Assembly: GCA_021812955.1 (NCBI GenBank)
Contig: JAKAMJ010000001.1
Coordinates: 1 to 30,474 of the forward strand
Direction of reading: 5' to 3'
Source of the DNA: a bacterium
GTDB taxonomy: Bacteria; Patescibacteriota; Minisyncoccia; Phycocordibacterales; Phycocordibacteraceae
DNA: 30,474 nt
Positions 1,713-16,518 of the stretch are shown here, one piece after another (positions within the stretch are counted from its first letter, which is position 1; every line of letters starts with the position of its first letter). The position numbers were made by a program, and so were the translations under genes. The notes under the pieces are model-generated. The model did not search any database. It was not told the origin of the DNA and was given only the letters and a program-made list of their open reading frames with translations.

Positions 1713-3623
1713 TTATTCTAACACCGCCTTGATGCGACGGATGCCAGCGGAAGATGCTTCTTCTTTTTTAATCTTGAAACGGCCGAGCTCGGAGGTGCTT
1801 GAGGCGTGCGGCCCGCCGCAGAATTCTATCGAGAATGCCTCGGTGAACTTCGGGTCGGACTCGGTCGCACTCGCGGGGCCGATCGAGTAGACAGTAACCT
1901 GCTCCGGATAATTCGCGCCGAACTCGTGCTCGGCATTCAGCTTCTCTGCCTCAGCTCTCGGCATGACAGTGCGAATGACGGGCAACGCCTCTGCTATCTT
2001 TTCATTTACGATTTTTTCTACCTCTGCTTTCTGTTCGTCAGTCATTTTTTGCCCGTAGTTGAAGTCGATGCGCAGGCGCTCGGCGGTAATGTTGGAACCG
2101 CGCTGGTGCACCTCCGGTCCCAAGACCTGCTGGAGCGCTTTCAAGAGCAGGTGGTGGGCGGTGTGGTAGCGAACCGTCTGCTCGCTCTGGTCGGCAAGAC
2201 CGCCGGCGAATTTCTGCGCCGCGCCCGCGCGAGACTTAACCTGGTGTTCGTCCATGAGCTTCTGGACCGCTTCGGTGTCGACCGAGAGACCGCGTTCGCG
2301 GGCCATTTCCTCGGTCATCTCAAGCGGGAAGCCGTAGGTAGTGTACAGATCGAACACCGCTTCCGCCTCAATGTATGGTTTCGTAAACCCGACATGCTTT
2401 TCGAACTCGCGGAGACCGTTGGCGAGCGTCTTCCTAAACTGCGCTTCTTCTTTCTCAAGTTCTTCGCGGATGATAGCTGAGGCCGCTTGCACGAACGGAT
2501 ACTGTCCGACGTATGCTGCGCCGAAGCTCTCCGCAACCTCGGCGAGCACGGCCTCCTTGATACCGAGCTTGTCGGCCTCGCGGATAGAGCGTCGAATAAG
2601 GCGGCGCAGAATGTAGCCCTGCTCGCTATTGCCGGGCTTTATCCCGCTCGCGAGCATGAATGTCGCCGCGCGCATGTGATCCAAGATAATCCTAAACGAC
2701 CGAGTTATAGGAATCTGATTCCTATATGTTTGGCTGGAGCGGGATTCGAGCACGGCGCGAGCGGCGTCGAAGATATCGGTGAGAAATACGTCAGGATTAT
2801 CGCGTGTAGCGGCGGTGAGGCGCTCGAGCCCGCCACCGAAGTCTACGTTGCGCTTGGGCAATTCTTTGAACGAACCGTCTTCCTGCTTGATGAACTGCAT
2901 GAAGACAGAATTGCCGATCTCGATGAAGCGGCCGCAATCGCAGTTGGGGTGGCACTCAGGGCCAAACGCTGGGTCGTGCGGCAGGCCGAAGTCATAGAAG
3001 ACTTCAGAATCCGGCCCGCCGATCTCGCCTGCGGGCATTTTGCTCGGCACCCCTGCCCTGCTCCACCAGTTTTTCTTCGCACCATAGGCGAAGATTCGCC
3101 CGCCCTGCATGCCGACTTCGTTCCCCCGCTCTTCAGTACCGAGCTCGACGAATTTTGCTTCGATTCCCTTTTCGTTAAAAATCTTCTTCCATATTTCAAC
3201 CGCTTCGGTGTCTGTCGTCATGCCGCTCTCAGCATCGCCGCCAAAGACCGTCACATAGAGCTTCTCCGGGTCGAGCCCGAGGCCTTCTTCTTTATTCGTC
3301 AGGAATTCAAAAATCCACGGGAGCTGTTCCTGCTTGAAATAGTCGCCGAGGCTCCAGTTGCCGAGCATTTCGAAAAATGTCGTGTGGCGATTGTCGCCGA
3401 CCTCTTCGATGTCTTCGGCGCGGAAGCTCATCTGCGAGTTGGCGAGGCGCGCGCCCTCCGGGTGCTCTGCACCCATGAGGTAGGGCACGAGCGGCTGCAT
3501 GCCGCTGCTCGTGAAGAGCGTGGTCGGATCATTTTCCGGAACGATAGGCGCACTCGGGATAATCGCGTGCCCGCGCTTCGCATAAAAATCGAGGAATCGC
3601 GTGCGTACGTCTGCTACCGTCAT
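1713..3623 (-). CDS. alaS: Alanine-tRNA ligase, short form (636 aa, no C-Ala domain)
   Basis: DPTTLFTSSGMQP, HTTFFEMLGNWS, VDFGGGLERL, GYILRRLIRR; editing motifs HTAHH and FCGGPH; ends GIRRIKAVLE. Confidence 0.97.
   Translation of the reverse strand: MTVADVRTRFLDFYAKRGHAIIPSAPIVPENDPTTLFTSSGMQPLVPYLMGAEHPEGARLANSQMSFRAEDIEEVGDNRHTTFFEMLGNWSLGDYFKQEQLPWIFEFLTNKEEGLGLDPEKLYVTVFGGDAESGMTTDTEAVEIWKKIFNEKGIEAKFVELGTEERGNEVGMQGGRIFAYGAKKNWWSRAGVPSKMPAGEIGGPDSEVFYDFGLPHDPAFGPECHPNCDCGRFIEIGNSVFMQFIKQEDGSFKELPKRNVDFGGGLERLTAATRDNPDVFLTDIFDAARAVLESRSSQTYRNQIPITRSFRIILDHMRAATFMLASGIKPGNSEQGYILRRLIRRSIREADKLGIKEAVLAEVAESFGAAYVGQYPFVQAASAIIREELEKEEAQFRKTLANGLREFEKHVGFTKPYIEAEAVFDLYTTYGFPLEMTEEMARERGLSVDTEAVQKLMDEHQVKSRAGAAQKFAGGLADQSEQTVRYHTAHHLLLKALQQVLGPEVHQRGSNITAERLRIDFNYGQKMTDEQKAEVEKIVNEKIAEALPVIRTVMPRAEAEKLNAEHEFGANYPEQVTVYSIGPASATESDPKFTEAFSIEFCGGPHASSTSELGRFKIKKEEASSAGIRRIKAVLE
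1715..1723 (-). promoter_or_regulatory. Extended -10 TGTTAGAAT overlapping the last codons of alaS, 6 nt before ATG 1708
   Basis: gtg tta gaa taa (V-L-E-stop of alaS) spells TGTTAGAAT; spacer aaaggg. Confidence 0.6.
2706..2726. repeat. 21-bp palindrome TATAGGAATCTGATTCCTATA inside alaS
   Basis: Perfect 10-bp arms; near-identical copy at 15040-15060. Confidence 0.95.
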
Positions 3624-3629
3624 GCTCAG

Positions 3630-3638
3630 AAGATACCA
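3630..3638 (-). promoter_or_regulatory. Extended -10 TGGTATCTT, 6 nt before the alaS ATG
   Basis: TGnTAnnnT with a 6-nt spacer. Confidence 0.6.
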
Positions 3639-3651
3639 CGCCGCTGGGTAT

Positions 3652-3682
3652 AAAAAAATGCCGAGGCTGTCGCCTCTCCGGC
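3652..3682 (-). terminator. Probable intrinsic terminator after the DUF2283 gene
   Basis: Bulged GC hairpin gccg-agg/cct-cggc followed on the minus strand by T7. Confidence 0.65.
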
Positions 3683-3683
3683 G

Positions 3684-3908
3684 CTAAGCCAATTCCGACA
3701 TCGGCACAGACACGCCGCCGATCGAGACGGTATTGAAATTGCGTGCACCGACCTTTTCTCGGGCGCCGAGAATCTCCAGATTAAGCAGACGCCCTCGTCG
3801 GTCGATATCGAGAATCACCTCGGGCGCCACCTCTACGGTCTTCGCGACCGCTCCAGGGCGAATCGAGACATTGAGTGCGTCAACTTCTTTGTCGTAGGTG
3901 ATTTTCAT
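3684..3908 (-). CDS. DUF2283-family small protein, putative antitoxin
   Basis: MKITYDKEVDALNVSI...EVILDID..G.LLNLEIL matches the family pattern; adjacent to a DUF4258-like gene. Confidence 0.85.
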   Translation of the reverse strand: MKITYDKEVDALNVSIRPGAVAKTVEVAPEVILDIDRRGRLLNLEILGAREKVGARNFNTVSIGGVSVPMSELA

Positions 3909-3914
3909 ACTTGC

Positions 3915-3923
3915 ACTATATCA
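3915..3923 (-). promoter_or_regulatory. Extended -10 TGATATAGT for the DUF2283 gene; its TGA is the stop codon of the upstream toxin-like gene
   Basis: TGA-TATAGT, 6 nt, ATG 3908. Confidence 0.6.
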
Positions 3924-4151
3924 TAATGGCGCTTTCTTTACCCAATGCGCCGTGACCACGATGATTTCATCCGATTTGCGAACCAGCACCACCTTCAGGT
4001 ATCGCGTGCCGAAACGACGATACCATTCTTCACGCGGATAATTCCCGGGGTTGCGTATGTCAGGAGATAACACGACCCTGCGGACTGATGCGATTGATAT
4101 GTTGCGCTGACTCAACTTGAGTAACGAATGGTCGCTGAAATGTATTTCCAC
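3921..4151 (-). CDS. DUF4258-family (RelE-like) putative toxin, GTG start
   Basis: IHFSDHSLLKLSQRNIS...LKVVLVR..DEIIVVTAHW is typical of DUF4258. Confidence 0.8.
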   Translation of the reverse strand: MEIHFSDHSLLKLSQRNISIASVRRVVLSPDIRNPGNYPREEWYRRFGTRYLKVVLVRKSDEIIVVTAHWVKKAPL

Positions 4152-4157
4152 ATGTTC

Positions 4158-4166
4158 AGTATAGCA
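4158..4166 (-). promoter_or_regulatory. Extended -10 TGCTATACT, 6 nt before GTG 4151
   Basis: TGnTAnnnT with a 6-nt spacer. Confidence 0.65.
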
Positions 4167-4170
4167 GCCG

Positions 4171-5934
4171 TTATTTGACCAGCCGTTCGAGGGCGGCGAG
4201 ATCGCGCTCGATGCCGGCTAGGCCTTCTTTGAAAAAGGCAGGCGAGCGCACGTCGAGCCCGCACGCAGAGAAGATGTCTTCGGGCGAGGCGCTGCCGCCG
4301 GCCGAAAGAAACGCGTCTACCCTCTCGACGAACGCCGGATCCTTCTTCACCCCCTCGTAGAGCGCGCGGGAGATGAGCTGGCCATAGGCGTAGGAGTAGA
4401 CGTAGAAGAAGCGGCGGATGTGACTCCAGTAGACGAAGAAGTAGCCATCGTCTTCGGTGAGCTCGACGGTCGGGCCTAGGTAGCTCGCCATGTGCGTGTT
4501 CATGAGTTTCGCTATTTCTTCTTTGGGTACGAGTCCTTTCGCTCGCACGGCGGTGTGGAGCTCTCGCTCGAAATTGAAAAGCGCAATTTGGCGGAAGATG
4601 GTTGCCACGTCGTCTTGGAGCCGATCGTGAAGCGCGATGCGACGCTCTTTCTCAGAGAGCGTCTTCGAGAGCGCGTCGAAGGCCACCTGCTCAAAGAAGG
4701 TGCTCGCGGTCTCTGCGACAGCGGTCGAGTAGTCCTGGTAGTGCAGCGGTTGCTGCTTGCTCCGCTCGGTGTGGATCGCGTGCCCCATCTCGTGCGCGAG
4801 CGTCATGAGCGAGTGAGCGTCGTCGACGTGATTGAGGAGTACCATCGTCGGCTGTCCCACCGAGCCGGAGCAAAACGCGCCACCGGTCTTCCCTTTCTTC
4901 GGGTAGACATCGGTCTGGCTGTTCTCGAGCAAGCGGTCGAATATCTCTGCATAGCGCGGATGGAGCCTCGCAAACGCTTCGCGCACGAGCTTGGCCGCGT
5001 CGTTGAAGGAAATTTTTTTCTTGAGCGTCCCTACCGGCGCGCCGCGGTCTGCGTAAGTGAGTTTCTTTTCGCCCATGAGCTCCGCCTTCGTCTTGAAAAA
5101 TCGTTTGGAGAGATCGAAGCGGCTCGACACGGCATCGACGAGCGCGAGGACGCTCGCGCGCTCGTTCTCGTAGCCGAGGATGGTCGAATCGAAGGGTTCG
5201 GCGAATCCGCGAAGTTCGTCGGTAATCTTCTTGCGCGCGATAATCGCATTCAGCTCGCTCTCGGCCATCGGCGCGATGCCGCGGAGCGTGCGCATGAGCG
5301 CCTGGTGAAGCGCGCGTCGCTTGGCCTTAGGCAAGTTGCGTAGCATCTCGACCGCCTCTGGTACCGGGATGCGCTTCTTGCCGAACGGCACTTCGCTCGT
5401 GTTGACGATGTTGTCGACCGCCTGCACCCAGCGCCCGTGGGAGACGTCGCCCAGGAGCGAAAATATCTTCTCTTCCGGCTCGGAGAGGTCGTGCTTGGCG
5501 TTCTCGAAAAGCTTCTTGAGAAGATAGTGATAGGGCGCGAGCTCGGGCGCCGCGAGGAACTTCTTCTGCATCGCGTCCGGGACCTTCCCGAGCTCGAGCG
5601 AGAAGAACATGAGCAGGTTGGCGCGCTTGGCGTATCGCTCGTCGAGCGCATTCGCGAGCGCCTCGGCCTGCTTGTCGGCAGCGTTGAGCTCTTTGCGATA
5701 AGCGGCGTAGAGCATCGGAGCTGGCGAGCTCTCAAGCTCTAGCGCTTCGCTCGCCTTAAGCGCATCGGCGAGCGCCTTCGGGTCCTTTAGCCAGGATTTG
5801 TCCTTGCGATATTTCGCGGCAAAGGCCTCGACAGCCTTTTCGCCTTTCGCCATATCCGCCTCGATCCGCGGGTCGGTGAGAGATGTATAAAAAAGCTTCT
5901 TCAAGTCCCACTCCGTCTTATATTTCTGCGCCAT
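4171..5934 (-). CDS. pepF: M3-family oligoendopeptidase F
   Basis: Zinc motif LAHEMGHAIH, downstream AETASTFFE, GKTGGAFC, WSHIRRFFYVYSYA; 587 aa. Confidence 0.92.
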   Translation of the reverse strand: MAQKYKTEWDLKKLFYTSLTDPRIEADMAKGEKAVEAFAAKYRKDKSWLKDPKALADALKASEALELESSPAPMLYAAYRKELNAADKQAEALANALDERYAKRANLLMFFSLELGKVPDAMQKKFLAAPELAPYHYLLKKLFENAKHDLSEPEEKIFSLLGDVSHGRWVQAVDNIVNTSEVPFGKKRIPVPEAVEMLRNLPKAKRRALHQALMRTLRGIAPMAESELNAIIARKKITDELRGFAEPFDSTILGYENERASVLALVDAVSSRFDLSKRFFKTKAELMGEKKLTYADRGAPVGTLKKKISFNDAAKLVREAFARLHPRYAEIFDRLLENSQTDVYPKKGKTGGAFCSGSVGQPTMVLLNHVDDAHSLMTLAHEMGHAIHTERSKQQPLHYQDYSTAVAETASTFFEQVAFDALSKTLSEKERRIALHDRLQDDVATIFRQIALFNFERELHTAVRAKGLVPKEEIAKLMNTHMASYLGPTVELTEDDGYFFVYWSHIRRFFYVYSYAYGQLISRALYEGVKKDPAFVERVDAFLSAGGSASPEDIFSACGLDVRSPAFFKEGLAGIERDLAALERLVK

Positions 5935-5943
5935 ATTGAGAGC

Positions 5944-5952
5944 AGTGTAGCA
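5944..5952 (-). promoter_or_regulatory. Extended -10 TGCTACACT, 9 nt before the pepF ATG
   Basis: TGnTAnnnT match. Confidence 0.55.
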
Positions 5953-5970
5953 GTAAGCGAAGAGAGATAC

Positions 5971-5994
5971 AAAAGTAGCCAGGTCTGACCTGGC
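5971..5994. terminator. Hairpin GCCAGGTC-T-GACCTGGC; probable terminator of the mnmA-ung unit, also REP-like
   Basis: 8-bp arms; minus-strand tail TACTTTT; GTAG immediately 5' of the stem on the plus strand. Confidence 0.55.
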
Positions 5995-6006
5995 CGCTTA
6001 CGAGAG

Positions 6007-6690
6007 CTAGCTCCAGTCAATAGGAGTATGCCCATGGGTGATGAGGTAGGAATTCGCCTTGGAGAAGTGCTTGCAGCCGAAGAAGCCCGCGTGCGCGGAG
6101 AGCGGCGAGGGGTGTGGCGCTTCGATGACGAGGTGTTTGGTGCGGTCGATGTGGGCGCCCTTCTGTTTTGCATAGTTGCCCCAGAGGATGAAAACGAGGT
6201 GCTCGCGCTCGTCTGCGAGCGCGCGGATGACGGCGTCGGTGAACTGCTCCCAGCCTTTCTTTTGGTGCGAGCCGGCTGCATGCGCACGAACGGTGAGGGT
6301 CGCGTTTAAGAGCAGCACCCCTTGCTCTGCCCACCGCGATAAATCGCCACTTCTTTCTGTATTGAAGTTCGACTTCAATACTGGCCCTAGATCGGTTGCG
6401 ATCTCTTTGAAGATGTTCTGGAGCGAAGGCGGTACTGGCGTCTGCTCGCCGACGGCGAAGGCGAGGCCGTTCGCTTGCCCGTCGCCGTGATACGGGTCCT
6501 GTCCGAGTATCACGACCTTTACCTTGTCGAACGGGCACAGGTCAAACGCACGGAAAATGTTCTTCGGCGCAGGGTACACTGCGCCGTTCTGATATTCTTC
6601 TTTTACAAATCGCGCGAGCTCGGCGAAGTATTCCTGCTCAAACTCGCCTTTCAGTTTCTCTTTCCACGACGACTCAATTTTTACTTCCAT
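6007..6690 (-). CDS. ung: Uracil-DNA glycosylase, family 1
   Basis: GQDPYH, GLAF, PPSLQNIFKE, GVLLLNATLTV, HPSPLS motifs. Confidence 0.97.
   Translation of the reverse strand: MEVKIESSWKEKLKGEFEQEYFAELARFVKEEYQNGAVYPAPKNIFRAFDLCPFDKVKVVILGQDPYHGDGQANGLAFAVGEQTPVPPSLQNIFKEIATDLGPVLKSNFNTERSGDLSRWAEQGVLLLNATLTVRAHAAGSHQKKGWEQFTDAVIRALADEREHLVFILWGNYAKQKGAHIDRTKHLVIEAPHPSPLSAHAGFFGCKHFSKANSYLITHGHTPIDWS
6359..6381. repeat. Palindrome GTATTGAAGT-TCG-ACTTCAATAC inside ung
   Basis: Perfect 10-bp arms; 18 nt are identical (inverted) to 16488-16505. Confidence 0.9.
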
Positions 6691-7474
6691 TGTTTTTGCC
6701 TGCGCGGTGCAGCGCGAGAAGGGTCTTGCCCGCCGCTTCGCGGTAGGTGCAGTAGTCGCAAGGGCCGCCGCCGAACGCCGTGCCGACGGGCGGGATCTCG
6801 TCGGAGAGGAGCGTCTCTTTCAGGCGGAGGAGCGTCGGCTCGACCCAATCGTCTTTGCCGGCGTACGGGATGAGCACCACGTCGAACTCGAGCTTCGCAT
6901 CGAAGGCCTCGGCGTCTGAATTGCCGTTGGCATACACGAAATACCCCGTCGGCGAGACGACGAAGCCGTTCTTGCGGAAGAGCCACTGATACACCTCCAT
7001 CTGCCGCTTGTACGAGTCGTACAGGTCGTCCTCGCTCGATGGCCCCACCTTCTTGCTCGTGGCCTTGTAGTCGACGATGATGAGCTCGCCCGCAGGGTTC
7101 ACCCACACGTCGTCGATGCCGCCGCGCAGCGTGATGTTCGTCGGCTCGTGGTGAAAACTTATACCGCGCTTGAGCGCGTCGCGCCATTCGTCGAGCTTCT
7201 CGTGCGCATATGGCACGGCGTCTATGCCGTATCTTTTCATAAGCTGGTGCGGCTCGCCTTTTGCGCGGAGCGCGTCGAACTCGCGCTTGAAGAGCTCGTC
7301 GACGGCATTGTTGAGCGTGAACGACGGCCCGCTCGGGCGCTTCACGCCGTAGCGCATGTCGAGATACGCGCAGCGCGGGCACTCGGAGAAGAGGTCTATC
7401 TTGGACCGGCTCACGCGATACGGCTCCGTCGAGGCCGGATCGAAGACGCCCCATTTCCCTTTCGCGAACGCCAT
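6674..7474 (-). CDS. PD-(D/E)XK nuclease, RecB/Cas4-like, with two CxxC pairs
   Basis: Likely start MAFAKGK, 1 nt after the upstream stop. SRSKIDLFSECPRC, GGIDD, IVDYKAT, QMEVY, CDYC. Overlaps the ung start. Confidence 0.85.
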   Translation of the reverse strand: MAFAKGKWGVFDPASTEPYRVSRSKIDLFSECPRCAYLDMRYGVKRPSGPSFTLNNAVDELFKREFDALRAKGEPHQLMKRYGIDAVPYAHEKLDEWRDALKRGISFHHEPTNITLRGGIDDVWVNPAGELIIVDYKATSKKVGPSSEDDLYDSYKRQMEVYQWLFRKNGFVVSPTGYFVYANGNSDAEAFDAKLEFDVVLIPYAGKDDWVEPTLLRLKETLLSDEIPPVGTAFGGGPCDYCTYREAAGKTLLALHRAGKNNGSKN

Positions 7475-7475
7475 G

Positions 7476-7946
7476 TCAGTCCGAAGTAGCGAACCGAGCG
7501 ACGATCGGCGCGCCGGTAGCGAAATCGACATAGACACTGTCCGTCGAGAGGTCGAAGGCCCCGTCGCCGTCGTCGCGATACAGCTCGACCGCATAGGTGA
7601 ACCCAGGCACGGTCGCGCGCAAGAGCGGGACCGTCACGCCGTTGCGCGGGCCGTTGACGCGCACAGCTCCGAGCACGTTCCCGAGCTCATCGCCGTTCAT
7701 CTCGCGCACGGTTACCCACGCGCCAGGCGGCGGGACGGCAACCGAATCGACGACCACTTCGGAACCGGCGCGTTGGTCCGCGACCGAGACGGCGTCGCTG
7801 TGCGGCGCTGGCGCTTGTGGCGAGTGCCGCTCGGTCTTCGCCCGGAACGGGAGCGGCGGATTGTCGCTGCCGAACCACCAAGCTCCGACCAGGAGCGCAC
7901 CGAGCATGAACCCTGCCACGAACGAATGTGTCGAGAAGTGCTTCAT
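7476..7946 (-). CDS. Hypothetical membrane-anchored exported protein, 156 aa
   Basis: N-terminal hydrophobic helix then a beta-rich domain; ATGA-type overlap with the upstream gene. Confidence 0.8.
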   Translation of the reverse strand: MKHFSTHSFVAGFMLGALLVGAWWFGSDNPPLPFRAKTERHSPQAPAPHSDAVSVADQRAGSEVVVDSVAVPPPGAWVTVREMNGDELGNVLGAVRVNGPRNGVTVPLLRATVPGFTYAVELYRDDGDGAFDLSTDSVYVDFATGAPIVARFATSD

Positions 7947-8815
7947 GGCAGCGTCGGGGCCGATGCGTGCGCGCCGTTCAGGGAAAGCAGCCCCTCGGCT
8001 TCGGCCAGTATCTCGCCGACGCGCGCGGGCGGGAGCTTCAGGACGTCGAGCCGGCGGCGTTCGCGGAACAATTCGTCGACCGCGATGCTCCCGCTGTCGA
8101 TGAGCAGGCGCTTCTCAGAGCGCGAGAGCCGCGTAAGCGTGGTGACCGGATACACTTTCGCACGGCTCATGCGTATGAAAAGAGAATCGTGCGCGGGATA
8201 CCCCCACCCGAGCAGGTCTACGCCCGAGCATTCGGCATACGCTACCGCCTCAGAGGTGAACTTCGTGTTGGTTATCAGTATGCCGCGATCAATCTCGCGC
8301 TCCGGCTTCGCCCTCGCGCGAGAGAATATGTCGTCGAAGCGGCTCTTCACGTAAAGAGCGACTTTCAGGTCGGTCTTGTAGTTCGGATCATTGTGGTACT
8401 TCAGCTCGGCCGCGAGCCGCACATCCTGCCCCGGGTGGGACGCGTACAGGTCCACCTCGTGAGGGACGCAGTGGCCTTGGATGATCTTGCGTGTCTCGAC
8501 CCGCCACCCCTCGGCACGATACAGATGCGATACGAAATCTTCGAACGGGTGGCCTGTCGGCCCGAGCTCGAGCAGCGCGCGCCGGAGCGCGTAGCGAGCG
8601 GCGACCGGCCTGGATTCTCGGCGCATGAGCGTAAATGCGCGCGTATGCACTTCTTTGGACGTCATGCCTGGGACGACTGCCTCCGTGACGACTTTCGTGA
8701 TGCGTTCGGCGGTATGCTCGCCGGCCCCGGCCCGCTTGAGCGAAGCTGTAAGGCGGGCGGGGTCGAACGGCTGTCTCGTCCCGTCTGCCTTTATGATGAT
8801 CGGCAGCGCTGTCAT
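7943..8815 (-). CDS. ATP-cone domain fused to an Mrr-like PD-(D/E)XK endonuclease domain
   Basis: Start MTALPIIIKADGTRQPFD (ATP-cone pattern), overlapping the upstream stop; GHPFEDFV, HEVDLYA, ELKYH, GILITNTKFTSEA. Confidence 0.85.
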   Translation of the reverse strand: MTALPIIIKADGTRQPFDPARLTASLKRAGAGEHTAERITKVVTEAVVPGMTSKEVHTRAFTLMRRESRPVAARYALRRALLELGPTGHPFEDFVSHLYRAEGWRVETRKIIQGHCVPHEVDLYASHPGQDVRLAAELKYHNDPNYKTDLKVALYVKSRFDDIFSRARAKPEREIDRGILITNTKFTSEAVAYAECSGVDLLGWGYPAHDSLFIRMSRAKVYPVTTLTRLSRSEKRLLIDSGSIAVDELFRERRRLDVLKLPPARVGEILAEAEGLLSLNGAHASAPTLP

Positions 8816-9228
8816 AAGCCGGTAGTGCTTGCCGTGCGGCCGTTTACCGTTACCGACGAAACGCGCACGCTTGCCGGCGCGGAGACCTTCACGGCAAACG
8901 CCGCGTGCGAGGGAACCTGCAAGCACACGCCTTCCGTGGTCGGAACGACGAGGGCGACGCGAATGGTTTCCGTGCTCGACGCGGTCCCGGCAGTGTCCGC
9001 GCTCGCGGAGACCGTCGCGCACGCGTCGGGAACGTCGAGAGTGCCCGAGATGGAGTGGACGCCTTTCCGATACGCATCACGGAGCGCGACGACCGGTGCC
9101 GGCTCGGCCGGTTTGGGCACTTCGGTGCGGACGACTTCGCGCGCGTGCGGCGTTATGAACAGGAATCCAGCGAGCACGACGCATGCGATGATGACGGATG
9201 CAGCCCGGAAACGCGTTCGCCTGGTCAT
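8812..9228 (-). CDS. Hypothetical membrane-anchored protein, 138 aa
   Basis: Basic N-terminus plus TM helix; two Cys; 4-nt overlaps with both neighbours. Confidence 0.75.
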   Translation of the reverse strand: MTRRTRFRAASVIIACVVLAGFLFITPHAREVVRTEVPKPAEPAPVVALRDAYRKGVHSISGTLDVPDACATVSASADTAGTASSTETIRVALVVPTTEGVCLQVPSHAAFAVKVSAPASVRVSSVTVNGRTASTTGL

Positions 9229-10160
9229 TCCCTAATGATACCACCCCCCACCATGCTATCGCCACGATAAAAGACGATGGACTGCCCAGGAGCGACGGCG
9301 TCTGAGACGGGCTCCTCCGGCACGAATCGGTCGCCGCTCACACGCCCGGGGACGCGCGCGCCGCGGTAACGGTACTGCGCAGACGTCGCCTGCGACGGGT
9401 CGGCAAACCAATTCGCGTTCTCGAAGCTGATACCCCGTACGTCATGCTCGCCCTGTTCCCGGGCGACCCGCACCTCTTTCTTTCCGACGTCTTTCCCCAC
9501 CACGTACCACGGCCCATCGGGCAGCGGCACCCGCTGCCCGATGGTGTACAGGACCGCAGGATTGTCCGTGCCCAGCTCCTGCCGCAAGAAATCATCCACC
9601 GACACGTTGCCGAGGAAGCACACGCCCTGGCTGTCCCGCTTATCGGCCACGGGCAAGCCGAACGCGCGCGCGAGCCGGCGCACCTCCCGTTTGTCCATGT
9701 GCCCCACCGGAAAGAGCGTGGCTTGCAACACCTCCTTCGGCACGGCCCACAGGAAATAGCGCTGGTCCTTCTCGCCGCTCTCGTAGTGCCCGGTCGCGAT
9801 CGCGTCCGCGCCGGCCGCTCTCGCGTAGCGGTAGAACGCGCCGAACTTCACGTCCTTGTTGCACATCACGTCCGGGTTCGGCGTGCGGCCGGCGCGATAC
9901 TCGGCGAGTAGATAATCGATGACTCCTTCCTTATATTCCGCGCTCGCGTCGAGCGTGCGAAACGGGATGCGCAGATGCGCCGCGACGCGCATCGCGTCGC
10001 GGCGATCGGCCGCCCAGGTGCACGGCATCCCGCTCGGGTACCAGCCCTTGATGAACACGCCAGTCACCCGCGCCCCCGCACGCTGCAAGAGCGCGGCAGA
10101 CACGGCAGAATCGACGCCGCCGGACAGCCCCACGAACACGCTCTTTCCTTTCAGCTCCAT
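9225..10160 (-). CDS. mnmA: tRNA 2-thiouridine(34) synthase, compact (311 aa)
   Basis: SGGVDS, TPNPDVMCN, ATGHY, KDQRYFL, DSQGVCF, PGQSIVFY. Confidence 0.95.
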   Translation of the reverse strand: MELKGKSVFVGLSGGVDSAVSAALLQRAGARVTGVFIKGWYPSGMPCTWAADRRDAMRVAAHLRIPFRTLDASAEYKEGVIDYLLAEYRAGRTPNPDVMCNKDVKFGAFYRYARAAGADAIATGHYESGEKDQRYFLWAVPKEVLQATLFPVGHMDKREVRRLARAFGLPVADKRDSQGVCFLGNVSVDDFLRQELGTDNPAVLYTIGQRVPLPDGPWYVVGKDVGKKEVRVAREQGEHDVRGISFENANWFADPSQATSAQYRYRGARVPGRVSGDRFVPEEPVSDAVAPGQSIVFYRGDSMVGGGIIRE

Positions 10161-10166
10161 CCCCCC

Positions 10167-10172
10167 AGCTTA
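10167..10172 (-). promoter_or_regulatory. -10 hexamer TAAGCT, 6 nt before the mnmA ATG
   Basis: TAnnnT, then GGGGGG, then ATG. Confidence 0.45.
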
Positions 10173-10223
10173 CACGATTTTCTTCCGGCGCGAGGCCGGT
10201 GAGAGGTCCAGGCTCTCTCGCGT

Positions 10224-10928
10224 CTACTGCAAATATCTCCGCAGGTTGGCCTGATGGCCGGCATACGTGGAAGCGTAGTGCATGAGGCCATCCCGGCCGG
10301 TGAGGTAATACAGGAACGGCGTGCTCGCCGGATGCACGGCCGCGTCGAGCGAATCGAGCCCGGGCTCGTTTATCGGCTCGGCCGGGAGCCCGGCGTGCGC
10401 GTACGTCTCCGGCGCGGCGTCTGCCTGGAGCCGCATGCCCTTTGCGATCCGATTCCATAAGATGCCGGATACCATACGGCGGTCGGCGGGAGCCTTCGCT
10501 TCGCCTTCTATTATCGACGCCATGATGACGACGTCGCGGAGCGAATGGCCGGATGCGCGTACGTCCGACAGCAGCGGCGCTACGCGAGTATCGAAATCCG
10601 CCCGCATCCGGCTGACGATCTCAGACGACGTGTCGCCAGCCTGGAAGAAATATGTATCCGGGAACAGGTACCCCTCCTGCCCTTTCGCCGCGGCCAGGAA
10701 ATCCTGCTCGGTCACCCACGGCAACGAGCGCGCCACGAGCGCAGCCATCTCCGGCAGCGTCGTGCCTTCGACGAACGTGACGCGCACCTGCGGCGGCGGA
10801 ACCGGCCGTACGATGATGCTCCGTATGAAATGACGTGATGGCGGATACGCGGCCGCCACCACTGCCATCACGACGACCGTTGCGCCTATCATCGCGATCC
10901 ATCGCGCATGCCTACGAAACGCGTTCAT
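10224..10928 (-). CDS. mltG: Endolytic transglycosylase MltG (YceG-like), short form
   Basis: N-terminal TM; EGYLFPDTY, ASIIEGE (catalytic Glu), LQAD, LPAEPINEPG, YLTGRDG. Confidence 0.9.
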   Translation of the reverse strand: MNAFRRHARWIAMIGATVVVMAVVAAAYPPSRHFIRSIIVRPVPPPQVRVTFVEGTTLPEMAALVARSLPWVTEQDFLAAAKGQEGYLFPDTYFFQAGDTSSEIVSRMRADFDTRVAPLLSDVRASGHSLRDVVIMASIIEGEAKAPADRRMVSGILWNRIAKGMRLQADAAPETYAHAGLPAEPINEPGLDSLDAAVHPASTPFLYYLTGRDGLMHYASTYAGHQANLRRYLQ

Positions 10929-10932
10929 GTCG

Positions 10933-12291
10933 TCAGACCGGCAGGTTCGCCGGCGCTTCGCCGGTCACGGATTGTATCCGTTCGAGGCTCGGAGCCGGGA
11001 CGGCGCTCGACGGGATATGGAAGATCGTGGCCAGCTCCTCCGTACTCATCACTATCGTGTCCTTGCTCGAGTCTGAAGGCTCATGGAAGAATTGGCGGCG
11101 GCGGAATGAGTTGACGAGCTGTCTGCGATGCGCGTCTTTCAGCTTTCCCACTCCGAATTCCCATGGGTAGTCTTCAAAACCGGTCATCCACCCTGCCGGC
11201 TTGAACCCGTTCCAGCCGTCATCGGCGGAGAATTGCTTGAAGAGGCCGGTCACGCCCGCGATGGTCGTCGAATCGAACGCTGCGGGCGTCGCCAGGTAGA
11301 CGGCGCGTATGCCGACATCGAACCCGAATTTCGACACGTTCCGCTCTATCGCCGCGATCTTTTCCATCTGGCCCTTCGTCGGATTAGGGAATCCGGGGAC
11401 CTCCTTGCCGGTCACTGGATCCTTGTAAGGCTCGCGCGTCGCCTTACGGATATTGTCGACAAGCTCTTTCGCTTCGTCCTTCCATGTGTACGGCTTCCCG
11501 GCAGGATTGAGCTTGTCGTATTTCTCGCCCTTGTGCGTACGGATGACGAATTGCAGCCAGAGCTGCTCTCCCTTCCTCATCGATCCCATGAACTCGACCA
11601 GGTTCGCGAGCGGATCGACTTGCTCTTCTTCTTTCTGCACCTTGTCAAGCCCGTATTCTACATACGTCTTTATCGGTAACGGGTCTTTCTCGGTATGCAC
11701 GAAATCGCATCCCCAGATCTCCCACTCTTCCGGCTTCGCCGTGATGATCCGCGTATAGTCTTCCGCCTCTACGACCTGCGCCCCGGGATACTGCGCATAT
11801 ATCTGCGCTTCGATGATCCGGCGGAACCCGATGCGCGTCCAGATGAAGAAGTGCACCCGCCCCTCTATGGATACGATCTCAAGCGACCACCACGGCCGCA
11901 CGGCTCCTTTGAAATATTTCTTATACCAGTTCGACTCGCCTGGGCCCAGGTGGATGCCGGAGAGGAACGCTTCCATAGCGAGCGGCGTCTTTACGACAGT
12001 GCGCGGCGGGCGTATCTCAAGCAGCACCGTCTTCTGATTCGCGATGAATTCGGAACGCTTAAGGATGACCCAGAGCGTCCACGCGCCGTCTACGAGCAGG
12101 AACGGCAGCCACGCCGGCGCAAGGAAGAACGCCATCGAAGACGCGAGGTACACGGCGCGCGGCATCACGATGAACGAGAACGCCAGGATCACGAGCCCGA
12201 GGATGAATATCGGGCGATGCTTCGGCCGCACGCCGGTCTGCTCTTTCGTCTTCTTCGTCTGTGCGCGCAACTGATCGAGGAATGGAAGCAT
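10933..12291 (-). CDS. Conserved hypothetical membrane protein, about 452 aa
   Basis: Long clean ORF with two N-terminal TM segments. The ORF-track TTG start at 12315 overlaps the promoter, so ATG 12291 is preferred. Confidence 0.8.
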   Translation of the reverse strand: MLPFLDQLRAQTKKTKEQTGVRPKHRPIFILGLVILAFSFIVMPRAVYLASSMAFFLAPAWLPFLLVDGAWTLWVILKRSEFIANQKTVLLEIRPPRTVVKTPLAMEAFLSGIHLGPGESNWYKKYFKGAVRPWWSLEIVSIEGRVHFFIWTRIGFRRIIEAQIYAQYPGAQVVEAEDYTRIITAKPEEWEIWGCDFVHTEKDPLPIKTYVEYGLDKVQKEEEQVDPLANLVEFMGSMRKGEQLWLQFVIRTHKGEKYDKLNPAGKPYTWKDEAKELVDNIRKATREPYKDPVTGKEVPGFPNPTKGQMEKIAAIERNVSKFGFDVGIRAVYLATPAAFDSTTIAGVTGLFKQFSADDGWNGFKPAGWMTGFEDYPWEFGVGKLKDAHRRQLVNSFRRRQFFHEPSDSSKDTIVMSTEELATIFHIPSSAVPAPSLERIQSVTGEAPANLPV

Positions 12292-12302
12292 ACGATGCTG
12301 GA

Positions 12303-12311
12303 AGTATAGCA
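12303..12311 (-). promoter_or_regulatory. Extended -10 TGCTATACT, 11 nt before ATG 12291
   Basis: TGnTAnnnT match directly after a terminator. Confidence 0.6.
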
Positions 12312-12352
12312 ACAAAAACAGCCGCGCCCGCTTCTGAGCGGGCGCGGCTGTT
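12311..12352 (-). terminator. Intrinsic terminator
   Basis: 15-bp perfect arms aacagccgcgcccgc/gcgggcgcggctgtt with a T-rich tail on the minus strand. Confidence 0.85.
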
Positions 12353-12363
12353 CATAGGGACCG

Positions 12364-13437
12364 TCACGCTGCCGAATACCGGCCGTCCTTGAGTCGTTTG
12401 AAATAACGGGAGTCGTTCAGGTTCACCAGGATGGTGTTGTCCTTCACGAAACGCGCCTTCTTCACGTGCTTGATTATCTCGTCTTTCTTCATCGGGCCGT
12501 TCTCATCGAGCGTCTTGCGTATGACGTCGCGCACGACGCCGGGCGAATAGCCCCACTCCGTAAGCGCGTACAGGCCGCGGCCCACTAGCACGAAACGCGG
12601 ATCCTTGATGAGCTCGTTATGCGTCGTGGCGACGTGCGCCCGTTTCGAGAAAAGCTCGCCGATCGTCTTCGCCACGGCGGAGAAGTGCATCGGCTCGCCA
12701 TGGCGCTTGATGGCGAGGTATGCGTAATCGCGAATGCCCTTCACGCGGATCGCCGGCGCCGAAGCGCGGCCCCACTGCTCAAGCGGGTTACTGCCGATAT
12801 TCTTGGAAAGGGACAGCCAGCGCTTCAGCACCTCTTCGTTCTTGTATGCGTCGTTCACGCCCTTGAGCTCGTCGAGGAACCGGTCGAGCAGCTCGGCTTC
12901 CGTCACTACATCATCGTCGGGGAGCGCGGAGTACAGGCGCGACAGCGCCTCGTGGACGTTCTTGGCGGTGGAAGCGTCCACATGCCACCGCGACAGGAAC
13001 TCGCTCGTCTCCCGCTCGCGGAAGAACGTCGCGTCGAGCATGAGCAGGAACCGGAACCGGTTGCGGCTCTTCTCGTCTTTGCCGAGCGCGGAAAGGAGCT
13101 CGGCCTCTGGCACGATGACTCCGAGCGACGCGACATATCGCGCGATCTCCTCGAACGCTTCCTTGGCTTCTTTGAACGCTTGGCTCGCGCGGATAGCGTC
13201 GAGCCCTGCAGCCTCTATCTGGCGGACGCGCTCGCGCGTGATGCTCGAGAGGTCGCCGATCGCTTCGAGCGTCTCGCGCTCCGGATTCGCTCCGAGCCCG
13301 AACCGGCGTACGAGCACCTCGCGCGGCCTCTCGGGGGCAGCGGCCAGCAGCCTCTTCACGAGCGTCGCACTATCAAAAGAAAACGCGGCGCGCGTAATGG
13401 CCTTTGTCGTGCTCCGCTTCTTTGCCGCTTTTGTCAT
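12364..13437 (-). CDS. Sigma70 region 4-like HTH protein with C-terminal winged-HTH (HARE-HTH / RNAP delta-like) domains
   Basis: RRFGL...ETLEAIG...ITRERVRQIE (sigma region 4); TTHNELIKDPRFVLVGRGLYAL. Confidence 0.8.
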   Translation of the reverse strand: MTKAAKKRSTTKAITRAAFSFDSATLVKRLLAAAPERPREVLVRRFGLGANPERETLEAIGDLSSITRERVRQIEAAGLDAIRASQAFKEAKEAFEEIARYVASLGVIVPEAELLSALGKDEKSRNRFRFLLMLDATFFRERETSEFLSRWHVDASTAKNVHEALSRLYSALPDDDVVTEAELLDRFLDELKGVNDAYKNEEVLKRWLSLSKNIGSNPLEQWGRASAPAIRVKGIRDYAYLAIKRHGEPMHFSAVAKTIGELFSKRAHVATTHNELIKDPRFVLVGRGLYALTEWGYSPGVVRDVIRKTLDENGPMKKDEIIKHVKKARFVKDNTILVNLNDSRYFKRLKDGRYSAA

Positions 13438-13485
13438 GTGTTCTAATTTATACCGGACACCATTAAATAAGTCAATCGCACCGGG

Positions 13486-15876
13486 TTACACCACGAGATT
13501 TATGATTTTCCCAGGCACGTAGACGACGCGCTTCGGCTCAGCGTCCCCGAGCGCCGTAGCTACCGTATCAATTTTTCGCGCGGCTGCAAGCGCGTCCGCT
13601 TCCGACGCATCCGCGGCGAGCACTGCTTCCCCGCGGCGTTTGCCGTTCACCTGCACGACGACCGCGGCCTCGCTCGCGGCGAGCAGCGCCGGCTCGTATG
13701 CCGGCCATGAGGCTTGGTGGATAGATCCGTCCTCGCCGAGGCGCTCCCAGAGCTCATCAGTCATATGCGGCGCGAACGGCGCAAGCACTTTCAAGAATGA
13801 ACGCCATTGCTCCTTCCCTATCTCCCCCTCCTTCTCCGCGGCGTTGACGAAGACCATCATCTGGCTCACGGCCGTGTTGAACTTGAACGCCTCGATATCC
13901 TCCCCGACCTTCTTAATGGTTTCGTGCAGGGCCTTGTCGAGCCGCGCGCGCGACTCATCAGCGACCTTTTCTTGCAGGCGCCACACGCGCTCGATGAAGC
14001 GCGCCGTGCCAGCGATCGAGCTCGTCGACCAGGCTGTCGCGTTCTCGAACGGACCCATGAACATCTCGTAGAGGCGGAAAGCGTCCGCGCCGTATTCCGC
14101 GACCACGTCGTCCGGATTGATGACGTTGCCGAAACGCTTGCTCATCTTGCGCCCGTCCTCTGCGAGGATGAGGCCTACCGAGGCGAGCCGGGCGAATGGC
14201 TCGAGCGTGCTCACGACGCTGATATCGTAGAGGAACTTGTGCCAGAAACGCGCGTATATCAGGTGGCGCGTCGCGTGCTCGGCGCCGCCGACATACATAT
14301 CGACCGGTGCCCAATATTTCTCTGCTTTGGTCGAGACGAGCGCGCCGTCATTTCCCGGGTCCATGAAGCGCAAGTAGTACCACGAAGATCCCGCCCACTG
14401 CGGCATGGTGTTCGTCTCGCGTTTGCCGGGGCCTTTGCACTTCGGGCAGGTGGTATTGACCCAGGAATCGATGGCGGCGAGTGGCGACTCGCCCGTGCCG
14501 GTCGGCTCGTACGATTCGACCTCCGGCAGCGTAACTGGCAAATCCTCGTATGGCACAGGTACCGTACCGCACTTCTCGCAATGAATAACCGGGATCGGCT
14601 CGCCCCAATAACGCTGGCGCGAGAACACCCAGTCGCGCAGCTTGTAGCGCACCGCCTTCTTGCCGCCCGCATACGCAACGATATCCCCCATCACCTCGCG
14701 ATTCCCCTTCCCGCTAAACTCGCTCGAGTCCACGAGCACTCCGTCGCCGGTAAACGGCAAATTACCACCTTCAATCACGCGCGATATCGACAACCCGAAT
14801 TTCTTAGCAAAAGCGTAGTCGCGCTCGTCGTGAGCCGGGACAGCCATCACAGCGCCGGTGCCATAGCTTCCAAGCACGTAGTCGGCGACGAATACCGGAA
14901 CCTCTTCTTTGGTTGCTGGGTTCACCGCCATCACTCCCTCGAGCTTGACGCCCGTCTTCTCCTTCCCTTCTGCACCACGCTCGATCTCGGTCTTGCCGGC
15001 GGCAGTCACGGCGTACGCGTGCACCTCCTTGAAATTTTTTATAGGAATCAGATTCCTATATGCCGATTGGAGCAACGGGTGCTCGGGCGCGAGGACCACG
15101 TAGGTTACGCCGAAGAGCGTATCGGGGCGGGTAGTGAACACGGCAATCTTTTCGTCAGTACCAGTGATAGCAAAATCGAGCTCGGCACCCTCGGAACGCC
15201 CGATCCAGTTGCGCTGCGCTTCTTTGATGTGCTCGGGCCAATTCAATGTATCAAGGTCGACGAGAAGCCGGTCGGCGTACTCGGTGATCTTCAAGACCCA
15301 CTGCGGGAGCCGTTTCTTCTCGACCGGAGTACCGCACCGCTCGCAAGCATTGCCGTCCAGGTCTTCATTAGCGAGACCGGTTTTGCAGGAAGGGCACCAG
15401 TTGATAGGTTCTTCAGACTCGAACGCAAGTCCCTGCTCGAGCAGCTTGAGGAATATCCACTGTGTCCAGTGGTAGTAGGCCGGGTCGGTCGTGTTTATCT
15501 CTCGCGACCAGTCATAGTCGAACCCGAGGCGCGCGAGCTGCGACTTGAAGGTCGCGATGTTCTTCTCGACGGCCGCGCGCGGGTGCGCCTTGTGCTTGAG
15601 CGCATAGTTCTCAGCCGGGAGGCCGAACGCGTCCCAGCCCATCGGGTGCAACACCTCGTGCCCCTGCATCCGCGCGTGACGGGAGAAGACGTCCGTCGCG
15701 ATGTATCCCTTCGGATGCCCGACATGGAGCCCTTCGCCCGAGGGGTACGGGAACATATCGAGGACGTACTTCTTCGGCTTGCCCTCAACCTCTTGCGAGC
15801 GATACGTCTCGTCGCGCATCCAACGCTCTTGCCATTTCTTTTCTACCTCCTTGTGCGGGAACGCTTCCTTCGCCAT
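13486..15876 (-). CDS. leuS: Leucine-tRNA ligase
   Basis: MFPYPSG..LHVGH (HIGH), GWDAFGLPAEN, FTTRPDT, SRQRYWG, KMSKR. Confidence 0.98.
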   Translation of the reverse strand: MAKEAFPHKEVEKKWQERWMRDETYRSQEVEGKPKKYVLDMFPYPSGEGLHVGHPKGYIATDVFSRHARMQGHEVLHPMGWDAFGLPAENYALKHKAHPRAAVEKNIATFKSQLARLGFDYDWSREINTTDPAYYHWTQWIFLKLLEQGLAFESEEPINWCPSCKTGLANEDLDGNACERCGTPVEKKRLPQWVLKITEYADRLLVDLDTLNWPEHIKEAQRNWIGRSEGAELDFAITGTDEKIAVFTTRPDTLFGVTYVVLAPEHPLLQSAYRNLIPIKNFKEVHAYAVTAAGKTEIERGAEGKEKTGVKLEGVMAVNPATKEEVPVFVADYVLGSYGTGAVMAVPAHDERDYAFAKKFGLSISRVIEGGNLPFTGDGVLVDSSEFSGKGNREVMGDIVAYAGGKKAVRYKLRDWVFSRQRYWGEPIPVIHCEKCGTVPVPYEDLPVTLPEVESYEPTGTGESPLAAIDSWVNTTCPKCKGPGKRETNTMPQWAGSSWYYLRFMDPGNDGALVSTKAEKYWAPVDMYVGGAEHATRHLIYARFWHKFLYDISVVSTLEPFARLASVGLILAEDGRKMSKRFGNVINPDDVVAEYGADAFRLYEMFMGPFENATAWSTSSIAGTARFIERVWRLQEKVADESRARLDKALHETIKKVGEDIEAFKFNTAVSQMMVFVNAAEKEGEIGKEQWRSFLKVLAPFAPHMTDELWERLGEDGSIHQASWPAYEPALLAASEAAVVVQVNGKRRGEAVLAADASEADALAAARKIDTVATALGDAEPKRVVYVPGKIINLVV
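15040..15060. repeat. 21-bp palindrome TATAGGAATCAGATTCCTATA inside leuS
   Basis: Perfect 10-bp arms; differs from 2706-2726 only at the central base. Confidence 0.95.
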
Positions 15877-16487: not shown

Positions 16488-16518
16488 GTATTGAAGTCGA
16501 ACTTCACTTCAACTACAG
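16488..16518. repeat. Intergenic variant of the ung hairpin, with an internal 5-nt duplication
   Basis: Minus strand CTGTAGTTGAAGTGAAGTTCGACTTCAATAC versus ung CTGTATTGAAGTTCGACTTCAATAC. Confidence 0.85.

Follow-up and report, generated by a model that had tools for sequence, protein, structure and literature searches.

The stretch of DNA considered here (the window) is 30,474 nucleotides of contig JAKAMJ010000001.1, contig C23 of the focal genome G000, a metagenome-assembled genome (MAG) of an ultra-small Parcubacteria (Kaiserbacteria-like) bacterium (548 kb in 70 contigs, 60% GC, 87% coding, about 90% complete). Two of its genes, those for alanyl-tRNA synthetase (alaS, AlaRS) and leucyl-tRNA synthetase (leuS, LeuRS), each carry in frame a copy of the same 21-nt perfect palindrome, TATAGGAATC-N-GATTCCTATA, which we call family F1 (Table 1). 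The copy in alaS is TATAGGAATCtGATTCCTATA, with T at its centre on the plus strand, and that in leuS is TATAGGAATCaGATTCCTATA, with A at its centre; if the flanking T and TG are added, the 24-nt strings at 2705–2728 and 15039–15062 differ in this central base alone, just as an earlier reading made without database searches (the sequence-only reading) had described. Its remark that the element is AT-rich against a GC-rich background is borne out (30% GC in the arms, 60% in the genome), and scanning the genome, as it had proposed, gave more than these two copies: there are five perfect copies in G000 against 0 expected, and in 100 shuffles nothing matched the palindrome even when three mismatches were allowed. 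A single variant, TATAGAAGTCAGACTTCTATA at C21:160, keeps its symmetry through two compensatory changes per arm. The motif is very probably a repetitive extragenic palindrome (REP)-type element, that is, a hairpin-forming palindrome belonging to a gene for a Y1/HUH single-strand DNA transposase that resembles the REP-associated tyrosine transposases (RAYTs), the combination being known as a REPtron. The suggestion with which the sequence-only reading began, a short mobile or converted hairpin element of seven codons in tolerant loops of essential genes, is supported.

That the two copies are read in the same frame, to which attention had been drawn, is correct as an observation but is no sign of function. 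On the coding strand TAG is always present in one alternative phase of F1, and TGA in the other if the centre is T, so that the shared frame is largely forced by stop codons and is uninformative; for the three in-gene copies the chance of a common phase is about 1 in 4. Orthologues of alaS were found in 40 of the 41 genus genomes searched. The AlphaFold2 (AF2) model of AlaRS (predicted local distance difference test, pLDDT, 81) places the copy, as had been anticipated, in a loop: Y300–I306 comprises part of loop 297–303 and the first turn of helix 304–325, between two long helices. The LeuRS copy lies about 20 residues past the TTRPDT motif, and the segment that holds it differs in length from one orthologue to another. 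AlaRS itself (636 aa here, 595–658 aa across the genus) is far shorter than the usual bacterial enzyme, and its model has low-confidence stretches at residues 25–42 and 464–479.

The evidence that carries the REP-type reading is the association of such palindromes with transposase-like genes. In the closest relative of G000, the sister species G061 (a separate MAG, whose genome was rebuilt from loci), the gene at C3:1334–2041 (236 aa) is bracketed by the exact F1 motif, 13 and 21 nt from the gene ends; this is the kind of motif-flanked HUH/Y1 gene that the sequence-only reading had said to look for. In G000 the product of C8:284–946 has an NHxHL motif, and copies of the CGTGGCGGTC family stand directly before and after the gene. 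Use of the C8 protein in tblastn gave five homologues in G000 and five in G061, and in eight of these ten a palindrome family of the gene's own stands on either side, at most a few tens of bases away; in G000 four paralogues each have their own flanking family, and paralogues within a genome are 25–67% identical. The G061 C3 protein scores 27.7 bits against Pfam PF01797 (Y1_Tnp, cutoff 23), a second score obtained with this family is 25.5 bits, and the only NCBIfam match of all ten homologues is to REP_Tyr_transpos (NF047646; best E 3e-18); a phmmer search with the RAYT-like protein against PDB sequences found nothing. The best PDB fold match of an AF2 model of the C3 protein (pLDDT 93, from a 54-sequence alignment) is 4er8_A, the E. 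coli RAYT in complex with a REP hairpin (template modelling score 0.68 by target), followed by ISDra2 and IS608 TnpA. In the 54 sequences N83-H84-x-H86 and Tyr144 are invariant and Tyr127 is present in 48; Tyr144, on a helix about 58 residues past the HUH motif, is likely to be the nucleophile. Judged from their sequences, these proteins are assigned to a divergent branch of the RAYT family.

Some of these genes also contain palindromes. At C8 of G000 (locus L131, 235–973) the gene's own palindrome occurs twice in frame inside it, at aa 60 and 153, and the RAYT-like gene on C29 of G061 contains a single copy (aa 57), which falls in the same loop as in the C8 gene. Internal cognate copies were found in just two of the eight RAYT-like genes examined, and none is present in the focal-family gene.

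The gene family is far more widespread than F1. RAYT-like genes were found in 108 of the 222 genomes of the genus comparison set (with a maximum of 12 genes in one genome), in 128 of 400 sampled phylum genomes outside G000 and, counting G000, in 112 of 320 genera. A search for relatives among species-representative genomes found 423; the best 80 of these, which were examined, are all from Parcubacteria-type MAGs, with source labels of Kaiser-, Adler-, Nomura-, Taylor-, Wolfe-, Campbell-, Yanofsky-, Nealson- and Portnoybacteria (some mislabelled), and an identical palindrome lies on both flanks of the gene in 47 of the 76 Parcubacteria loci for which both flanks were available. The generalised motif TATAGNNNTCNGANNNCTATA occurs in G000 and G061 only, that is, in 2 of the 222 genus genomes, and beside the five perfect F1 copies of G000 there are three in G061 and none in the other 220. 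In another member of the genus, G023, the family found in the alaS loop occurs 25 times in the genome and stands on both sides of a RAYT-like gene (C5:73768–74397).

Within G000, F1 has many counterparts. There are 242 perfect palindromes whose arms reach 9 or more and whose loop does not exceed 4, compared with 10–15 in shuffled genomes, and odd palindromes with an arm of exactly 10 are in sharp excess (23 against 1). Part of the 242 are GC-rich hairpins with 3–4-nt loops and are terminator-like; the remainder fall into about ten AT-richer families built alike (arm10-N-arm10 type, 21 nt), including TGGACAAGTC-N-GACTTGTCCA, CGTGGCGGTC-N-GACCGCCACG, TGGGAGAGTT-N-AACTCTCCCA, TATTGAAGT-NNN-ACTTCAATA, TTAGGACATC-N-GATGTCCTAA, GCTGGACACT-N-AGTGTCCAGC and several more. 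A census of the families (up to two mismatches allowed) counted 76 copies, 41 of them in predicted coding sequences, 34 intergenic and 1 at a gene edge, with five copies for F1 and 2–15 for the others; intergenic DNA is enriched about 3.4-fold (binomial p=3e-12), yet the majority of copies are translated, and those in genes occupy a stop-free phase. Numerous doublets, in which copies 26–28 nt apart jointly form a palindrome of 45–55 nt, recall the REP doublets forming hairpins (REPINs) and are translated as 13–16 extra residues in DnaE-, TopA-, Def- and MiaA-like proteins; the G061 orthologues are without the five doublets of Table 1. Over 82 distinct palindromes the apex is conserved, with G at −3, T at −2 and C/T at −1, the centre coming next and the other half mirroring the first, in the form GT(C/T)-N-(G/A)AC, and the outer arm is variable. 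Such an apex fits the rule for group 3 REPs that the loop bases matter (PMC8266576).

Table 1. Palindromes and host genes in the window and elsewhere in G000 (window positions unless a contig is named)
Feature	Location	Strand	Remarks
alaS, alanyl-tRNA synthetase, 636 aa	1713–3623	minus	open reading frame; host of first F1 copy
REP-type 21-nt perfect palindrome, F1	2706–2726	none	perfect copy; Y300–I306 (YRNQIPI) of AlaRS
ung-like gene	6010–6690	minus	host of F5 copy
Palindrome, family F5, GTATTGAAGT-tcg-ACTTCAATAC	6359–6381	none	VLKSNFNT in ung-like gene
leuS, leucyl-tRNA synthetase, 796 aa	13486–15876	minus	open reading frame; host of second F1 copy
REP-type palindrome, F1	15040–15060	none	perfect copy; YRNLIPI in LeuRS
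Degenerate F5 copy	16489–16509	none	2 mismatches; downstream of ychF-like gene
F1, perfect copy	C17:1018		
F1, perfect copy	C33:6496		
F1, perfect copy	C46:198		
REPIN-like doublet	C17:1871–1917		DnaE-like
REPIN-like doublet	C58:2986–3040		TopA-like
REPIN-like doublet	C28:1880–1932		Def-like
REPIN-like doublet	C40:2431–2478		MiaA-like
REPIN-like doublet	C48:2263–2305		TopA-like

REPtrons, consisting of REP or REPIN sequences and a RAYT (TnpA-REP), have been described from Proteobacteria and include E. coli YafM (PDB 4ER8) and the group 3 systems of Stenotrophomonas and Marinomonas (Corneloup 2021, PMC8266576; Di Nocera 2013, PMC3733652; Bertels 2017, PMC5581495). REPs inside open reading frames and RAYT genes flanked by REPs have already been reported (PMC3733652), as have short perfect REPs (group 3) in which the loop bases are key determinants (PMC8266576). 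The present system resembles REPtrons in that each family has a Y1/HUH gene with its own short palindrome on both sides and further copies dispersed in the genome, in that several enzyme/palindrome pairs are present per genome and in its REPIN-like doublets, and it resembles group 3 in its short perfect palindromes with important loop bases. It departs from their extragenic habit, as more than half of the copies are in genes, essential ones included, and one is in an rRNA insertion; the protein is longer, at about 235 aa, with an additional helical part at its C terminus, its score falls short of the RAYT family cutoff, and the hosts are Patescibacteria with genomes of 0.5–0.7 Mb. It is a variant of the known REP/RAYT kind, previously undescribed in this phylum as far as our literature search shows: no paper linking RAYT with the Candidate Phyla Radiation (CPR), Patescibacteria or Parcubacteria was found, and two RAYT/HUH surveys make no mention of these phyla.

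By analogy with E. coli TnpA-REP and IS200/IS605 TnpA (PMC8266576, PMC3333891, PDB 4ER8), the enzyme would bind the hairpin in its folded, single-stranded form, probably on the template of the lagging strand, read its conserved apex, cut beside it and transfer the strand in the manner of E. coli TnpA-REP and IS608 TnpA, and the hairpin would be copied to new places or over resident hairpins. As the 21-mer is fully symmetric both strands are expected to be substrates, unlike the case of classical REPs. In a genome so largely coding, copies would persist only where seven extra or changed codons are tolerated, such as the inter-helix loop of AlaRS or the variable segment of LeuRS, and a 21-nt unit that is stop-free in one phase would pass this coding filter. 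Established sites would be long-lived, their sequence being swapped for that of the family currently propagated.

Several observations weigh against the REP-type reading. In the G000 assembly (90% complete, 70 contigs) no RAYT-like gene is flanked by the exact F1 motif, and the nearest paralogue, on C69, is flanked by a related family, F9, TATCGAAGTC-N-GACTTCGATA. As F9 is close to F1 (F1 (TATAGGAATC), the variant F1v (TATAGAAGTC) and F9 (TATCGAAGTC) differ by one or two compensatory pairs) and the C69 protein is 67% identical to the F1-bracketed G061 protein, C69 is the likely source of the F1 enzyme in G000, unless the cognate gene falls in an assembly gap. Scores against NF047646 lie well below its 80-bit cutoff (28 bits for the G061 C3 protein, at most about 60). 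The 21-mer is fully symmetric with a 1-nt centre and gives the same hairpin from both strands, and no separate 5′ GTAG tag precedes it; it differs from REPtrons in its symmetry and probably in the tag. Within the arm, at −9 to −6, there is ATAG in F1 or GTAG in the main G061 family, a position that is variable across the 82 families. Copy number is low, 3–25 per family and not hundreds. Neither a target-site duplication nor a conserved target was seen beside copies of six families (flanks of 8 copies), and no presence/absence polymorphism was seen, so that mobility is deduced from distribution. The gene calls in G000 come from our own crude caller, and a few copies are double-counted at the contig ends C28/C46 and C48/C58, which share overlapping duplicate sequence.

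The sequence-only reading had entertained both insertion and replacement, and alignment with orthologues favours the latter. In the alaS of G061 the identical codons hold the variant TATAGAAGTC-N-GACTTCTATA, followed by the same ACTCGG. The G000 form occurs in three copies elsewhere in G061 and the G061 form once in G000; because both forms occur in both genomes, the two alaS alleles differ by a family swap and not by point mutation. In other members of the genus the same loop contains ACAAGGTT-a-AACCTTGT, TCCAAGGT-cga-ACCTTGGA or degenerate relatives. Relative to palindrome-free orthologues alaS differs in length by a net 0 to +2 codons, leuS by about +3 and an IleRS-like gene by 0, the values for other genes are +4 to +6, and the dnaE doublet is a clean +16; as most of these values are below the +7 codons of a simple insertion, replacement or overwriting gives the better fit.

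In-gene sites are common to the two species far more often than expected by chance. Some G061 palindrome is present at or near four of the five F1 sites of G000: besides those at alaS and at the C33 intergenic site, upstream of dnaE G061 has a GAAGTC doublet (C43:4013–4056) and in the holB loop the TTAAATGTT family, and its leuS orthologue has no palindrome at the site. The loop of the ung-like gene that carries F5 in G000 is occupied in G061 by two copies of a family of that species, TGTAGAAGT-tcg-ACTTCTACA. For 12 of the 28 mappable in-gene palindromes of G000 there is a G061 palindrome within 45 nt of the orthologous position, compared with 3 of 100 control positions in the same genes (Fisher p=4e-7). 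This may reflect either inherited sites with overwritten sequence or a few tolerant loops that are hit repeatedly and then filtered by selection. We put forward tentatively, as a possibility that we rate as rather less probable than its negation, that in-gene REP sites are heritable landing pads overwritten by whichever family is currently propagated, in a conversion-like copy-over and not by insertion. If so, an HUH enzyme would repeatedly rewrite about seven codons of AlaRS, LeuRS, DnaE, TopA and Ung with their length unchanged, and copy-over would be a mode of DNA mobility undescribed for REP/RAYT systems.

Among explanations that compete with the REP-type reading, the one that fares best, though we consider it unlikely, is that the solo palindromes are solo ends or footprints of an autonomous IS200/IS605-type element whose gene and two hairpins move together. 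The number of RAYT-like genes, up to 12 per genome in the genus, would suit this, as would the solo F1 of G000 at C33:6496 (intergenic, in C33:6458–6516, just past a terminator hairpin), which lies exactly where G061 has a gene-plus-hairpins unit (C43:22144–22954). At that site in G061 (C43:22100–22954), however, the whole RAYT-like gene is bracketed by TGTGGATATC-N-GATATCCACA, a different family. The paralogues of a genome are too divergent to be recent copies, and as a 0.75-kb insertion in alaS, leuS, dnaE or topA would be lethal the in-frame copies cannot be remnants of such an element. Excision of IS200/IS605 elements is precise and is not known to leave a 21-nt footprint. IS608 and ISDra2 share with our system the Y1/HUH fold and the subterminal hairpins adjoining the gene, but they move as whole units, have near-identical copies and imperfect asymmetric hairpins, whereas here the genes (five homologues in G000 and five in G061, 25–67% identical) are divergent and single-copy and only the hairpins are dispersed. 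A miniature inverted-repeat transposable element, defined as terminal inverted repeats around a non-coding core of 70–300 bp with a target-site duplication, was also considered and rejected, as the element is 21 nt, has no core and has no duplication in the flanks of 8 copies.

The alternative raised by the sequence-only reading, a chromosome-wide site (of the parS, matS or NBS kind) to which a dimeric organising or regulatory protein binds and which is maintained also inside genes, is very improbable. Perfect dyad symmetry and a small number of perfectly conserved copies are what such a site would have; a motif confined to two genomes of the genus is not, nor are some ten different families in one genome that bracket their own Y1 transposase-like genes, a different sequence at the same alaS codons in the sister species or a relative of the motif inside an insertion in a 23S rRNA gene. 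This species specificity, the many families and the link to RAYT-like genes led us to reject it. Just as improbable, in our view, is a local origin of each palindrome, by template switching or by selection for RNA or DNA structure, with no copying between sites. The small net length changes against orthologues (0 to +3 codons) and the sites common to both species are compatible with local origin, but five identical 21-mers in unrelated contexts cannot have arisen independently when none is expected, the two compensatory pairs in which the alaS copies of the two species differ are exactly those that distinguish two families, and both families occur elsewhere in both genomes. That the motif arose in assembly or library preparation, for instance as a linker or one of the chimeric junctions that short perfect palindromes can mark, is to be dismissed, as the reading frames remain open, the unrelated G061 assembly has the motif, with its variant at the orthologous alaS site, and the independently built Logan contigs of four runs of one mine-drainage metagenome study, which cover 2058–2946 and 14623–15558 or beyond, contain both sites in all four runs with 0 differences and 0 gaps, so that the sequence is real.

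Two further kinds of repeat invite comparison with the REP-type system. Rickettsia palindromic elements (RPEs) are likewise in-frame palindromes in still functional genes of a reduced genome, and to our knowledge no dedicated transposase is known for them. RPEs are roughly 100–150 bp and CGTC-tagged (PMC3733652), whereas the element here is 21 nt, lacks the CGTC end and is tied to a RAYT-like gene; it is the REP part of a REP/RAYT system and not a new kind of element. The small dispersed repeats (SDRs) of cyanobacteria (21–27 nt; Elhai et al. 2008, Genome Res 18:1484, cited in PMC3116915) share a length of about 21 nt, dispersal and hairpin potential with our families, but they come from another phylum and have other sequences, and we know of no Y1 transposase gene described in association with them. 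SDRs have reportedly been proposed to be mobile and to replace existing sequence.

Most of what is known of REP/RAYT systems comes from Proteobacteria, and they are considered extragenic. A divergent RAYT branch is found here in about a third of sampled Patescibacteria, whose genomes of 0.5–0.7 Mb have little non-coding DNA, and its hairpins have shrunk to a symmetric 21-mer of seven codons that survives in essential genes and even in an rRNA insertion. Three questions can be put to such a compact natural system: by what means a perfect hairpin is recognised by an HUH enzyme, what lets selfish or domesticated repeats endure in streamlined genomes, and whether repeats enter as insertions or overwrite the DNA already present. 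In annotation the system accounts for recurrent odd peptides in CPR housekeeping proteins (YRNQIPI, LKSNFNT, DKSDLS, RGGPTAT) and for some of the contig breaks in these MAGs.

The variant TATAGAAGTCAGACTTCTATA lies in a 3′ part of a 23S rRNA gene (C21:1–693 of G000, locus L136) that has a 358-nt insertion at about Rfam large-subunit (LSU) position 2620. Inside the insertion the TATAGAAGTCAGACTTCTATA palindrome, at 160–180, is accompanied by a second palindrome of 26 nt at 285–310, and downstream of the gene there are a 5S rRNA and a tRNA. In the window, independent contigs from two of the metagenome runs start or end at 6276–6341, just beside the palindrome in the ung-like gene, and repeats of this type probably contribute to the fragmentation of these MAGs. 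Between 8700 and 9400, and in this stretch alone, linked single-base variants are numerous in the four runs and suggest that the population contains strain variants or undergoes recombination.

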